A stretch of DNA of 64,000 nt from an uncultured Acidaminococcales bacterium (GCA_964551985.1 CAZKFG010000001.1:40181-104180); one strand, 5' to 3'. Shown: positions 19,551 through 34,069, counted from the first letter of the stretch. Notes: generated by a model not told the origin, from the sequence alone. Translations and numbers: made by a program.

Positions 19551-19573
19551 TTTATTTTTACATCATGCCGCCC
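19551..19573. repeat. Direct repeat copy 1 (23 nt) identical to the groEL 3' end
   Basis: TTTATTTTTACATCATGCCGCCC is identical to 34047-34069. On the minus strand it reads GGCGGCATGATGTAA (GGMM-stop) plus downstream bases. Confidence 0.75.
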
Positions 19574-20022
19574 TGATAATTCTCGTTTAGTATAGTTTGC
19601 TTAATTTGATATAGTGAGCTAAATAGCTGGTTTTTTAAAAATACTGTTAGGTTTAGTTTGAATGATTTTATTATAAAAATATAATTATGTGGTCAAATAA
19701 ACTCATATATAGATACTACACAATTCTTACAAAAATTGTCATCACTTAAAACCAAGCAGAAGTTTGTAAATATGATAAGTTGCTTTTTCTATTTTTATCA
19801 CTTTTCAAAAACTCTGTATTTTAAATTCTTTTCAATGTGTATTTTCGCATTGTAACCTAACTATTTTTACCTATCTTTAATTATCGTTGCTGCGAATTTT
19901 CCACTAAAATCAAACATTTTATGCGATTTTAAACCATTGACAATAACATCTGTACACTCATGTAGTATTTTGTTTAGTGTCAAATAAATAATAAGACAAA
20001 TATACTTTGTTGTTTTAATTAT

Positions 20023-20673
20023 TCAAAAAGTAATAAACTTAATATTTTCTGAGATAATTAAATCTGCTTCTGTTGCTGCAACAACATCTTCTATACTAAC
20101 TTCTTTATCAATTTCTTTAAGTATTAGACCATCATTCGTTTTTTCTATTACAGCCATTTCAGTAATAATTAAATCCACTTGATTTACAGCTGTAAATGGC
20201 AGGCGGCATTTATTTAGTATTTTTGCCTCTCCTTTAGAAGTATGTTCCATTGCTATAATTACTTTTTTAGCACCAACAACCAAATCCATTGCACCACCCA
20301 TTCCAGGCACTTTTTTGCCTGGAATAATCCAATTAGATAAATTACCGTACTTGTCAACCTCCAAAGCGCCTAAAACGGTTGCTGCTAAGTGTCCTCCACG
20401 AATTATACCAAATGATGTTGCACTATCAAAGCATGCCGCACCAGCAATCATAGTAACAGGAATTCCCCCTGCATTAACTATATCTTTATCTTCTTTACCT
20501 TTGGCAGGACTAGGACCAACACCTAAAAAACCGTTTTCAGAGTGTAAGACTATATTTACACCTTCAGGCAAATAGTTCGCAACTAGTGTAGGAATACCAA
20601 TACCCAAATTTACGTAATCATTATTTACAAATTCTTTTGCTGTACGTCTAGCAATTTTTTCTTTAGCATCCAT
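20023..20673 (-). CDS. atoA: Acetate/3-oxoacid CoA-transferase subunit B (AtoA/CtfB/ScoB-like)
   Basis: HSENGFLGVGP (catalytic Glu motif). 216 aa, adjacent to the A subunit. Confidence 0.85.
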   Translation of the reverse strand: MDAKEKIARRTAKEFVNNDYVNLGIGIPTLVANYLPEGVNIVLHSENGFLGVGPSPAKGKEDKDIVNAGGIPVTMIAGAACFDSATSFGIIRGGHLAATVLGALEVDKYGNLSNWIIPGKKVPGMGGAMDLVVGAKKVIIAMEHTSKGEAKILNKCRLPFTAVNQVDLIITEMAVIEKTNDGLILKEIDKEVSIEDVVAATEADLIISENIKFITF

Positions 20674-20677
20674 TTTA

Positions 20678-21334
20678 TCACCTCTCGTCTACAACCAAAT
20701 AGTCCACAAAAATGCCTGGTGTTACAACATGTTCTGGCTCAATCTCACCAACCTCTACCAATTGTTCAATTTCAGCAATGACAATTTTGGCTGCACTAGC
20801 CATAAGTGGGTTAAAGTTCCTCGCTGAAGCACGATAAACAAGGTTTCCCATTTTATCAGCTTTATATGCTTTAATTAAAGCAATATCTGCTAATAACGGT
20901 AATTCTAGTAAATATTCCTTATCCTCTATTTTTATTATTTGCTTACCCTCTTGGACAATAGTCCCAACACCTGTTGGTGTTAAAAATCCACCAAGTCCAA
21001 ATCCTGCACATCGTATTTTCTCTGCTAGAGTGCCTTGTGGAATTAAATTTACTGTAACTTTACCATTATTCATTTGCTCGCCAGTTTTGGGATTAGTGCC
21101 AATATGACTTACATATAATGTAGATATTTGTTCGTTATCAATAAGTTTACCAATAGCTCTATCTATAAAAGCTGTGTCATTAGCAATAACAGTTAGATTG
21201 TTAACAGGTCTTATCGATAGCTGTTCTAAGATTAAATCTGGACTACCACAGCCTAAAAAACCACCTATCATTAAAGTAGATTTAGTTTGAACAAAATCCG
21301 CTGCTTGAATATCTGTTATAATTTTTACTGTCAC
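20678..21334 (-). CDS. atoD: Acetate/3-oxoacid CoA-transferase subunit A (AtoD/CtfA/ScoA-like)
   Basis: IGGFLGCGSP, ANDTAF, SHIGTNP and GLGGFLTPTGVGT closely match E. coli AtoD as recalled. GTG start after AGGAGG. Confidence 0.85.
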   Translation of the reverse strand: MTVKIITDIQAADFVQTKSTLMIGGFLGCGSPDLILEQLSIRPVNNLTVIANDTAFIDRAIGKLIDNEQISTLYVSHIGTNPKTGEQMNNGKVTVNLIPQGTLAEKIRCAGFGLGGFLTPTGVGTIVQEGKQIIKIEDKEYLLELPLLADIALIKAYKADKMGNLVYRASARNFNPLMASAAKIVIAEIEQLVEVGEIEPEHVVTPGIFVDYLVVDER

Positions 21335-21404
21335 CAGTACACCTCCTAATCACAAAAAATCGGTTAAAATAGCAAACGAAAAAAATATTCGTTTGCTATT
21401 TTAT

Positions 21405-21779
21405 TTATCCTTGATTGACTGCCTCACTAGAATTTTCTCTTGCTGGTGTATAGATAACAAGAAATGTTGCCGCGTCTGTTTGGCAAATAACTTTATGAAG
21501 GCTATTTTTAAAGAATATAATAAAATCGTCTTTTCCCAAAACAACATCATCACCATCGCCAGTAACTTTTAGCTGACCACTTAACACAAACATACACTGT
21601 TCAAACTCTGAATGAAAATGTGCTTTTGCATGACCTGTTTTACCCATTTTCCCATATATAACCTCTATATGTTCAGCGCCATCTTTTGGACCAATAAGAC
21701 GCCTGTTAAAAGTATCATCGTGTCCTGGTGGCGTATATTCTTTTATCTCTTTAAAAGAAACTTTTTTGTATCGATTCAT
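21405..21779 (-). CDS. Cupin-domain protein
   Basis: 124 aa. GHAKAHFHSEFEQCMFVLSG matches the cupin motif-1 pattern. Confidence 0.75.
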   Translation of the reverse strand: MNRYKKVSFKEIKEYTPPGHDDTFNRRLIGPKDGAEHIEVIYGKMGKTGHAKAHFHSEFEQCMFVLSGQLKVTGDGDDVVLGKDDFIIFFKNSLHKVICQTDAATFLVIYTPARENSSEAVNQG

Positions 21780-21794
21780 TCTATGCCTCCAAAT

Positions 21795-22889
21795 CTAGTC
21801 TGGAAATCTTTGACCCACTTTTTCGCCTTGCTTTTCTTTGCGTTCTTTCAAGCCCTTACGTTTAAAATCTTCGTTTGCTTTTGTTAAAAGCTTACCGTGT
21901 ACAATACAGTCAGACCGAAGTCTCCTACCTATTGTCCGCTCCAGTTGTCTACCTAATGTAATAATTTGATCCATATCAATACCTGTTTCAATGCCCATCT
22001 CTTGCATCATCATAAGCATATCTTCTGTATTGACAAGTCCAACAGCATTTGGACAATTATAATAGTAGCTACCAGTACCACGAATTGGAGTATCATCCAT
22101 AAAGTTTGCTGGTTGCCCGCCAAGTCCACCCAAAGTGCTTTCAAAATTAGTTATTCCTGCTTGTAGAGTTGCCAATACATTTGCCATGCCCCAACCACGT
22201 GTCTCGTGAAAATGTGCTATATGCACTTTAGTGTCTGGTATAGCATCTAAAAGACTAGAAAAATAACTATAAACTTTATCCGGAGAAGATGACCCATCAT
22301 GATCAGCATGCTCCACATCATCAGCACCAATATCTAGCCATTTTTTAGTAAATAAAATTGCGTCAGAAAATTTCGTTGGTCCAGAAATTGGGCTACCCCA
22401 AATAGTACTTACTGTTCCATTCACCTTTATTCCAGCGTCATGAGCTTTTTGGATGCATCGTTCTGCTTCTTTCCAATATTCAGGTAAAGTTGTACCAGAA
22501 TTAGCATAATGATGCTCTTCGTCTGTTGACACCATCATCAATATCCTATCAGGACCAACGCCTTGTTTTTTCAATTCAATGGCTCTATCTACTGCAGACT
22601 CACGAATTGTTACGCAAGTTATTTCGACATCTTTCATGTCAATTCCAAATCTTGAAATATTTTTGCTATTTCTAAGACGCTCTAGCAGAATTTGCGCATC
22701 TTTAAATTGCGGCATGTTAGTAGGATTACCAAGATTTGTCAATTCTATTTTTCTTAAACCAGCAATTATAAGTTGCTCTGCATAATACAACTTTGCCTCA
22801 GTAGAAATAAACTTTTCTTCATGCTGAAAACCATCACGAATTGTAATGTCACCAATACTTACCTTTTTTGGATATTTAAAAACTGACAT
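21795..22889 (-). CDS. HMGL-like (pyruvate carboxyltransferase fold) lyase with a Lys/Glu-rich C-terminal extension
   Basis: DITIRDGFQHE, HFHETRGWG and GGLGGQP motifs. About 364 aa. The ATG at 22889 follows GGGGG; the track start is 22904. Confidence 0.8.
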   Translation of the reverse strand: MSVFKYPKKVSIGDITIRDGFQHEEKFISTEAKLYYAEQLIIAGLRKIELTNLGNPTNMPQFKDAQILLERLRNSKNISRFGIDMKDVEITCVTIRESAVDRAIELKKQGVGPDRILMMVSTDEEHHYANSGTTLPEYWKEAERCIQKAHDAGIKVNGTVSTIWGSPISGPTKFSDAILFTKKWLDIGADDVEHADHDGSSSPDKVYSYFSSLLDAIPDTKVHIAHFHETRGWGMANVLATLQAGITNFESTLGGLGGQPANFMDDTPIRGTGSYYYNCPNAVGLVNTEDMLMMMQEMGIETGIDMDQIITLGRQLERTIGRRLRSDCIVHGKLLTKANEDFKRKGLKERKEKQGEKVGQRFPD

Positions 22890-33526: not shown

Positions 33527-33589
33527 TATTTAGCCCCCCAACTTTTTAAAATGCAAATACAATACATTTAACACTACATCTAATAATTA

Positions 33590-33605
33590 AGCAAATTTCA
33601 TGCCA
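33590..33605 (-). promoter_or_regulatory. Sigma-54 (-24/-12) promoter of TRAP system 1
   Basis: The minus strand reads TGGCATgaaatTTGCT with GG/GC 12 nt apart, about 65 nt upstream of the start at 33526. Confidence 0.7.
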
Positions 33606-33790
33606 ACTAATATATTAAAGCTGTAAAAGCAACTACTAGCAAACTCTATTTTCTATTTTTATATTTTTTATACAAACTCTTACTTATAGATATAAGTTGC
33701 ATCATAATAATACTAAATAATGTTTTAAAAATTTTATAAAATTTATACTAATTTAGAATTTTTTGAATATAATAAAAATTGATTAAAACA

Positions 33791-33827
33791 AAAAGTATAT
33801 TTCAAGATATTATTGAAATATACTTTT
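33791..33827. repeat. Perfect 15-bp inverted repeat (hairpin or protein-binding dyad)
   Basis: AAAAGTATATTTCAA-gatatta-TTGAAATATACTTTT, flanked by T-rich sequence on both strands. Confidence 0.4.
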
Positions 33828-34010
33828 ATATTATTTTTTATTGCTAGACTTTAAAACTATTAAAGCTATAGTAGATAAAGTTACAATTATAAAATTATAT
33901 TTACATATAACCAAAGAAATGAAAAAAGCGACCTCCCAAAAGTTTTCTAAACTAATGGAAGGTCTACTTTAAAATTTTCTATTTGGTCAAAATGTGGTCA
34001 AACGAACTTT

Positions 34011-34044
34011 TGATTAAAATAAACCTTGGCTTAATGCAAGGTTT
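34011..34044 (-). terminator. groEL Rho-independent terminator
   Basis: AAACCTTG-gcttaatg-CAAGGTTT just after the groEL stop. The downstream tract on the minus strand is U-rich. Confidence 0.7.
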
Positions 34045-34046
34045 AT

Positions 34047-34069
34047 TTTATTTTTACATCATGCCGCCC
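34047..34069. repeat. Direct repeat copy 2 (23 nt): last 4 groEL codons, the stop, and downstream bases
   Basis: Identical to 19551-19573. Confidence 0.75.

Follow-up and report, generated by a model that had tools for sequence, protein, structure and literature searches.

The DNA stretch analysed in this work is 64,000 nt long, belongs to an uncultured Acidaminococcales bacterium (GCA_964551985.1 CAZKFG010000001.1:40181-104180) and is referred to as the window, with positions counted from its first nucleotide. The window carries the chaperonin gene groEL on the minus strand, and a 14.5-kb interval that begins at the groEL 3' end is flanked by two direct repeats of 23 nt. One repeat copy forms the groEL 3' end, and groEL is still full-length. 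The interval holds 14 genes, and all of them (14/14) are metabolic, regulatory or transport genes according to Pfam scans. They comprise an AcnX operon, its sigma-54 activator and two tripartite ATP-independent periplasmic (TRAP) transport systems, which is the same gene inventory that had been given in the initial annotation of the window. A truncated tyrosine integrase gene and short motifs that resemble arm-type integrase-binding sites are located at the inner borders of the interval. The features are shown in Table 1, where att denotes attachment site.

Table 1. Positions of the features at the groEL locus and the basis on which each was assigned.
Feature	Position	Strand	Basis
groEL, target gene	34054..35688	-	544-amino-acid (aa) open reading frame; last 16 nt (34054-34069) are part of the putative att core
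Putative attL core, proximal repeat copy (GGGCGGCATGATGTAAAAATAAA on the minus strand)	34047..34069	-	exact match; GGGCGGCATGATGTAA is common to att cores of IMG/VR proviruses
Hairpin in the putatively element-derived P' arm	34015..34050	.	terminator scan; RNA fold -14.5 kcal/mol, z = -5.95
Tandem predicted arm-type integrase-binding sites, P' arm: TTTGACCAC at 33994-34002 and TTTGACCAA at 33983-33991	33983..34002	-	motif search
Truncated tyrosine integrase pseudogene	33847..33972	+	last ~41 codons including the catalytic-Tyr motif LYLHITK and the stop; open frame from 33817
Sigma-54-type promoter TGGCATGAAATTTGC, upstream of the second (outer) TRAP operon	33591..33605	-	pattern search, 1 mismatch to consensus
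Interval interior: CoA-transferase B/A, cupin, HMGL-like lyase, CoA-transferase III, AcnX small and large subunits (all minus strand)	20023..33526	.	Pfam scans
Two TRAP systems, DctM/Q/P and DctP/M/Q	within 20023..33526	-	Pfam scans
Sigma-54 activator, divergently transcribed	26051-27481	+	Pfam scans
Predicted arm-type site TTTGACCAC, P arm, 123 nt inside the distal core	19689..19697	-	motif search
Putative attR core, distal repeat copy	19551..19573	-	exact match
Probable ancestral groEL terminator, B' side	19469..19501	-	15 bp stem and T-run; -18.6 kcal/mol, z = -6.4
HtrA-like serine protease gene, first gene of the putative ancestral flank past attR	18256..19347	-	Pfam Trypsin_2; database copy P0246 is 363 aa

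Repeat pair, integrase remnant and arm-type sites

The repeat reads TTTATTTTTACATCATGCCGCCC on the plus strand, and its two copies match with 0 mismatches. On the minus strand it reads G GGC GGC ATG ATG TAA AAATAAA, which corresponds to the last base of a Met codon, the GGMM codons, the groEL stop codon and 7 nt downstream. The bases that abut the distal copy and those that abut the proximal copy are different. The perfect repeat at two sites, the composition of the proximal copy (GGMM codons, stop codon and 7 nt) and the unrelated flanks had all been described in the initial annotation, and the present reading agrees with each description. No match was obtained in any of the 100 dinucleotide-preserving shuffles (0/100), and a third site is absent from the 64-kb window when up to 3 mismatches are allowed. 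The 23-mer is the longest exact repeat of the window once the repeats of 24 and 22 nt inside paralogous genes and the GGM tandem of groEL are set aside. The remaining exact repeats reach 16-17 nt at most.

The truncated integrase gene converges on groEL with a stop-to-stop distance of 81 nt. The motif that surrounds the catalytic tyrosine is present in its translated frame, DFKTIKAIVDKVTIIKLYLHITKEMKKATSQKFSKLMEGLL*. The integrase of L024 (L-numbers denote fetched metagenome or viral-contig loci and P-numbers denote database proteins) has Phage_integrase and Arm-DNA-bind_4 domains. This integrase gave one significant tblastn match to the window, where its residues 345-377 align with 33871-33969 on the plus strand (55% identity, E = 5.6e-5), and the stop codon of the remnant coincides with the end of the L024 integrase. 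Nothing integrase-like was found upstream of about 33847, and therefore roughly 335 codons have been deleted. The match of the remnant to an integrase in PHROG is weak (E = 0.019), and the Pfam scan of the 46-aa fragment, which is too short, gave no match. The 46-residue remnant also matches the C-termini of convergent proteins in about 29 IMG/VR loci (40-64% identity) that were gathered through the groEL 18-mer only. The DNA of the remnant exhibits 77-81% identity over 64-79 nt to the best viral loci (best E = 1e-10). The distance from the integrase stop to the core has a median of 82 nt in those viral loci and L024, compared to 81 nt in the window.

The integrase gene beside the putative att site is thus present as its 3' end only (about 41 codons), in the expected place and orientation and with a sequence typical of the family. 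The interval had been described as an insertion without a recombinase. That description holds for an intact gene; it does not hold for the truncated tyrosine integrase pseudogene. The groEL-proximal stretch of 520 bp that had been regarded as non-coding likewise holds the integrase gene fragment and arm-type sites that were overlooked. When the L024 prophage proteins were compared to the window using tblastn, the integrase fragment was the one match. The comparison of the end regions to the viral loci using tblastx returned the integrase fragment and the core and nothing else. In the distal spacer of 450 bp (19574-20022), tblastx and blastn searches for phage remnants returned the core and the arm site alone.

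The exact 9-mer TTTGACCAC has two copies in 64 kb, both on the same strand and one just inside each repeat. Measured from the core start, the distal inner flank of the window has its predicted arm-type site at -123, and the proximal inner flank has two, at +68 and +79. The arm motif of the intact and uninterrupted attP in the viral loci L085 and L112 is located at -127/-126, +70 and +81. Judged from these motif positions, joining the two inner flanks of the window rebuilds a predicted attP with the geometry of this family. The shared attP spacing is the strongest single argument that both 23-mers would have originated from one site-specific integration. The arms of the window and those of L085 and L112 cannot be aligned outside the core and the arm sites, and therefore the element of the window is a related element and not the same one. 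The viral spacer between the core and the integrase stop includes a hairpin followed by a short tandem repeat, and the layout of the window is identical. Such a spacer is the usual signature of arm-type integrase-binding sites.

The tandem motif TTTGACCACATTTTGACCA was found in 23 viral stretches, many of them at contig ends. About half of the stretches with upstream sequence exhibit a groEL-type core or a core that resembles a tRNA 3' end. In L152-L170, L085, L090, L097 and L112, TTTGACCACATTTTGACCA is located about 50-70 nt from differing att cores that are either the groEL end or tRNA-3'-end-like (for example in L153, L160 and L165). This arrangement suggests that one arm-binding integrase lineage may have switched its core specificity several times.

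The groEL terminus as an attachment core

The groEL genes of several relatives retain the DNA sequence of the terminal 18-mer, ATGGGCGGCATGATGTAA. This 18-mer was identified in 89 viral-contig stretches, where 32 stretches end a groEL gene, 50 stretches have no groEL upstream and 7 stretches are too near the locus edge. From their surroundings, the 50 contexts without groEL are predicted attP or attR type sites. Three proviruses with groEL at one end have an exact repeat of 18-19 nt at the other end. The 18-nt groEL terminus is thus an attachment core that is broadly used by several phage lineages. Both window copies contain 16 of the 18 nt of ATGGGCGGCATGATGTAA, and the whole 23-mer had no match in the viral contigs.

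The groEL-end proviruses from IMG/VR (attP in L085 and L112; the pairs L063/L109, L110/L100 and L080/L121) share the core GGGCGGCATGATGTAA with the window. They also share the order of core, hairpin, tandem arm sites and integrase stop, with TTTGACCAC at about -125, +70 and +80. Hairpins comparable to the one at 34015-34050 follow the core in most viral att sites. These elements differ from the window locus in that they are contigs of 19-45 kb and predicted proviruses, with full-length integrase matches in all that were checked. The exact repeat also differs, where it is 18-19 nt (ATGGGCGGCATGATGTAA) in the IMG/VR proviruses and the repeat of the window is shifted, without the first AT and with AAATAAA added.

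A pair of occupied and empty sites was identified between two metagenome contigs of related Negativicutes, L023 and L024, whose lineage is different from the source species of the window. Both contigs carry the same GroEL protein, which is 85% identical to that of the window. An ordinary terminator comes after groEL in L023 (empty site). In L024, a convergent tyrosine integrase gene ends 85-86 nt past the groEL stop and is accompanied by phage repressor/Cro-like genes (occupied site). The DNA of L023 and L024 is identical through the groEL stop and diverges one base later. L024 thus resembles the window in the convergent integrase, in the junction at the groEL stop and in an integrase C-terminus that is 55% identical to the remnant. 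L024 differs from the window in its intact integrase of 377 aa, its phage repressor/Cro-like genes, a far end that is off the contig and its arm repeats TTTGCCGAG.

The groEL 3' end is also the integration site of phage-inducible chromosomal islands (PICIs) in staphylococci. SeCISE48 of S. epidermidis integrates there and the last 18 bp of the gene are in its att site, and the same att site has been reported for several staphylococci (PMC8125051). The window locus and the staphylococcal PICIs are alike in a tyrosine-integrase element at the groEL 3' end, an unaltered groEL with about 18 bp of it in the att site, the size class (about 15 kb) and the flanking direct repeats. However, the PICIs carry genes for an integrase, an excisionase, a repressor, replication and packaging interference, and helper phages mobilise them. 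The window locus has only 41 integrase codons left of such genes and holds a catabolic regulon, and its host is under Negativicutes.

The mechanism is of a known kind, where tyrosine-integrase elements are located at the groEL 3' end in staphylococcal PICIs and in many viral contigs, and no new mechanism is involved. The window locus is a new and decayed case in a different phylum-level group and has an unusual, purely metabolic content. Comparing the published use of the groEL 3' end by staphylococcal PICIs to the findings in this work, this att site is extended to Negativicutes.

The islands at tRNA and tmRNA 3' ends are also similar, where the attP copies the 3' end of a conserved gene, direct repeats are left and integrase decay fixes the island. 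Their target is an RNA gene, whereas the target in the window is the end of a protein-coding gene. The temperate mycobacteriophage Bxb1 reportedly has its attB within the chaperonin gene groEL1 of M. smegmatis, which is disrupted by the integration. Bxb1 is said to use a serine integrase and minimal att sites without arm sites, which makes it mechanistically unrelated to the window system.

Integration at groEL and origin of the AcnX/TRAP cluster

The integrase remnant, the arm sites, the common phage core and the L024/L023 pair bear out the initial annotation in its proposal of site-specific integration at the groEL 3' end. The pair of 23-nt copies very probably represents attL (proximal) and attR (distal) of a phage-type tyrosine-integrase element that inserted there. 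The repeat, the integrase fragment, the arm sites with attP-like spacing and the general use of the core by phages were observed directly, and the case is based on the internal att architecture together with the analogy to many other elements. The attP of the element would have carried the copy of the groEL end GGGCGGCATGATGTAA plus AAATAAA. Strand exchange inside this core would have kept groEL intact and would have placed the hairpin, the tandem arm-type sites and the convergent integrase gene of the element directly after groEL. The original downstream region of groEL, which consists of the terminator at 19469-19501 and the htrA-like gene, would have been displaced by 14.5 kb. The empty attB before the insertion would have read groEL ...GGGCGGCATGATGTAAAAATAAA followed by TCTGCTAATTAGATTTG... 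and the 19469-19501 hairpin. A later deletion would have removed all integrase codons except the last ~41 and any other mobility genes, and the interval would therefore be unable to excise by itself. No circular excision product is expected unless a related integrase acts in trans.

The terminators at both ends of the interval can be placed in this scheme. The terminator scan of 19300-20100 returned 19469-19501 as its sole site, and the 550 nt scanned beyond the AcnX operon, which ends at 20023, contain no other terminator-like site. The AcnX operon thus probably ends now at the old groEL terminator. The strong hairpin beyond the distal copy had been noted in the initial annotation (given as 19471-19499) and had been proposed as the original groEL terminator. 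The hairpin is real, and the proposal is a reasonable fit, with the hairpin 56 nt past the duplicated stop and the native groEL terminators of L020 and L023 at roughly 35-45 nt. That survey recorded the distal hairpin correctly and overlooked a second strong one, which follows the proximal copy at 34015-34050. The second hairpin is predicted to be the present groEL terminator and to have formerly served the convergent integrase gene as well. The gene after groEL is different in every relative examined, and the upstream order tsaE-tsaB-rimI-tsaD...groES-groEL is kept.

Several findings weigh against the reading of the interval as an integrated element. Pfam scans and tblastn with the L024 prophage proteins identified no intact gene for an integrase, an excisionase or replication in the interval, and none of phage or PICI type. 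No intact element that combines this integrase with AcnX/TRAP cargo was found among the fetched viral loci, and no close relative of the source is present in the collections searched, so no empty site was seen for the source species. The distal copy does not have the first two bases of the 18-mer (CAG, not ATG) and is 7 nt longer at the 3' side, which makes the window core a variant of the common groEL-end core. The segment is no outlier in composition among same-sized blocks, where it ranks 11/48 in codon usage and 7/50 in tetranucleotides, and its guanine-plus-cytosine (GC) content at third codon positions (GC3) is 0.223 vs 0.243. The nearest homologues of the cluster are on low-GC contigs and in an Acidaminococcales metagenome-assembled genome at 68% identity, which suggests an origin within the same clade with no signal of distant transfer. 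The initial annotation had proposed to compare the segment to its flanks in GC, codon usage and k-mer signature; the segment is not marked as foreign by its composition. GC, GC3, codon usage and tetranucleotides speak neither for nor against a recent foreign origin.

The closest homologous AcnX/TRAP clusters are located in L025 and L147 (GC 39%), and their proteins are 62-89% identical to those of the window. In both, one TRAP system, the activator and the AcnX operon are arranged in the gene order of the window. Homologous clusters that are more distant were identified in L026 and L028. The AcnX clusters of L025, L147, L026 and L028 are in other contexts and none of them is beside groEL. The metagenome scan with AcnX gave one contig of 2.6 kb that is uninformative. 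The genome-collection scan with the flanking protease gave distant matches only (23-40% identity over most of the match), and the nearest protease homologue (45% identical) is in an unrelated context with no groEL nearby. The window proteins that were found in the protein collection are singletons. The GroEL of the window is 83-86% identical to GroEL of Negativicutes, and no GroEL in the protein collection is closer than 86%.

The DNA between attL and attR must be either element DNA or a later insertion, and the AcnX/TRAP cluster is therefore not an ancestral occupant of this site. This matters for the evolution of the cluster and for the inference of function from gene neighbourhoods. We give about an even chance to the arrival of the sigma-54-controlled AcnX/CoA-transferase/TRAP cluster as cargo of the element. 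The fuller form of this proposal, to which we give a little less than an even chance, is that a complete sigma-54 catabolic regulon of ~13.5 kb (AcnX dehydratase, three CoA-transferase genes, HMGL-like lyase and two TRAP systems) was moved as cargo by a module of phage or PICI type that consists of an arm-binding tyrosine integrase and a groEL-end attP. If this is true, the locus is a metabolic island that used the groEL att site in Negativicutes and was later fixed by integrase deletion. The cargo reading involves one integration and one internal deletion, and it is slightly favoured over a later entry of the cluster into the scar. In the latter case, a prophage or PICI at groEL would have been almost wholly deleted, with the truncated integrase gene, the P' arm and the P arm left, and the cluster would have entered by illegitimate or homologous recombination. 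We regard such a history as possible and tentative. It agrees with an att architecture like that of bona fide phages of 30-45 kb, with the presence of AcnX or TRAP genes in none of the fetched viral loci, with the host-like composition of the cluster and with its sigma-54 promoter logic, which is the same as that of another window locus (3939-3953). However, two further events would be required, namely the deletion of nearly the whole interior and a precise insertion of 13.5 kb, and no trace of that insertion was found as an insertion sequence (IS) element, a second repeat pair or inverted repeats at the inner borders.

The host-like composition of the cluster and its same-clade homologues would also agree with a capture that resembles specialised transduction, in which the groEL prophage of a related donor excised aberrantly together with adjacent AcnX/TRAP genes that replaced phage genes, and the defective genome integrated at groEL here. 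Such a capture is also consistent with the phage-type att arms that enclose the interval and with the absence of phage genes inside it, and if it occurred, the metabolic island may stem from captured host genes. We consider it improbable, where no donor with the cluster beside groEL is known (the cluster is elsewhere in L025, L026, L028 and L147). Classical aberrant excision also keeps one phage arm and one hybrid junction, whereas the P and P' arm sites here both look intact and are a better fit to a normal attP. Far less credible still is a repeat unrelated to mobility that arose by chance, from a second groEL, by local duplication or as an assembly artefact. In its favour, the 3' portion of the repeat, TTTATTTTTA, has low complexity and is rich in AT, the genome has 35% GC, and no mobility gene is intact. 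Against such an origin stand the shuffling result, the shorter length of the other exact repeats and the finding that no GroEL-like coding sequence or reading frame is present upstream of the distal copy. Neither chance nor duplication accounts for the hairpin, arm sites and integrase fragment that lie inside the two copies at phage-like distances, and the att architecture effectively refutes an origin unrelated to mobility already.

Other classes of element were compared to the locus and dropped. A target-site duplication of a transposon or IS element does not fit, where neither a transposase domain nor terminal inverted repeats were found and the repeat is 23 nt (vs 2-14 bp). The Xer/dif type (integrative mobile elements exploiting Xer, IMEX), which has flanking dif-like sites of 28 bp with XerC and XerD arms, was set aside, where the XerD-arm half is mismatched by eye to the E. 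coli dif sequence, and the phage-type integrase fragment and arm sites leave no need for this reading. The locus resembles PICIs and Staphylococcus aureus pathogenicity islands (SaPIs) in its 14.5 kb and its att site only, and the characteristic genes of that class (integrase, repressor, primase/replication and packaging/interference) were not found. An intact or cryptic prophage was rejected, where Pfam, tblastn and tblastx identified no phage structural, lysis or regulatory genes between the att sites. For annotation, the locus illustrates that a few dozen integrase codons and the spacing of arm sites can reveal a decayed island that is invisible to composition-based finders.

Promoters and other features of the window

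The sigma-54 promoter upstream of AcnX (25887-25901, minus strand) is a perfect match, and the one upstream of the outer TRAP operon is about 230 nt from the truncation point of the integrase. From these promoters, the interval interior looks like one regulatory unit. The AcnX operon (20023-25848) contains a family III CoA-transferase, an HMGL-like lyase and a two-subunit CoA-transferase, and we take it to resemble operons for CoA-dependent degradation of dicarboxylates of the itaconate or citramalate type, where AcnX may be the hydratase or dehydratase. Perfect matches to the sigma-54 -24/-12 pattern TGGCAC-N5-TTGC were identified at four positions of the window, namely 3939-3953 (+), 18101-18115 (+), 25887-25901 (-) and 59672-59686 (-). 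The matches at 3939 and 25887 are located just 5' of operon starts, and two or more catabolic loci in the window seem to be under sigma-54 control. Neither the Rfam scan nor the tRNA scan of the region gave a match.

In L025, an apparent 3' half of a tRNA gene that was not called by ARAGORN is located at 10420-10470 after the CoA-transferase genes of the AcnX/TRAP cluster. It is followed at 10760-13213 by a Fic-like fragment, a gene of 413 aa with unknown function and a helix-turn-helix gene. The AcnX/TRAP cluster of L025 may also adjoin an integration hot spot.

The interval between tsaD and groES contains a histidine kinase gene (HWE_HK/HisKA_2) and an ANTAR response regulator gene in all four relatives that were examined (L019, L020, L022 and L023). 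The same interval in the window (35994-36257) is just a gap of 265 bp with an AT-rich palindrome at 36066-36149. L019 carries at 8163-10178 a GroEL of 671 aa (P0001) in which about 130 residues are duplicated internally (residues 319-451 are repeated), and this protein on a metagenome scaffold is probably an assembly artefact. P0001 had the top GroEL bit score and yet is 78% identical to the window GroEL, and with its internal duplication it was dropped as a close relative.

To the left of the interval, a plus-strand block at 2-18 kb is located within an otherwise minus-strand region and may represent a local inversion or a block on the lagging strand. At about 17000-18300 the GC skew changes its sign, genes converge at 18224/18256 and a bidirectional hairpin is present (AATAAAAAACCCTGCA / TGCAGGGTTTTTTATT). 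Two paralogous blocks at 11092-12161 and 15523-16594 exhibit 71-78% DNA identity and are 4.43 kb apart. The block that was scanned against Pfam (15599-16594) is a gene of the GGGtGRT family, and the pair forms a duplicated module in the plus-strand locus left of the island. On the other side of groEL, a perfect palindrome of 26 nt, AAACAAGTAGCAATTGCTACTTGTTT, is located at 54285-54310 between the minus-strand genes 53226-54245 and 54315-56258. This palindrome, the longest exact inverted repeat of the window, may function as an operator or a terminator.

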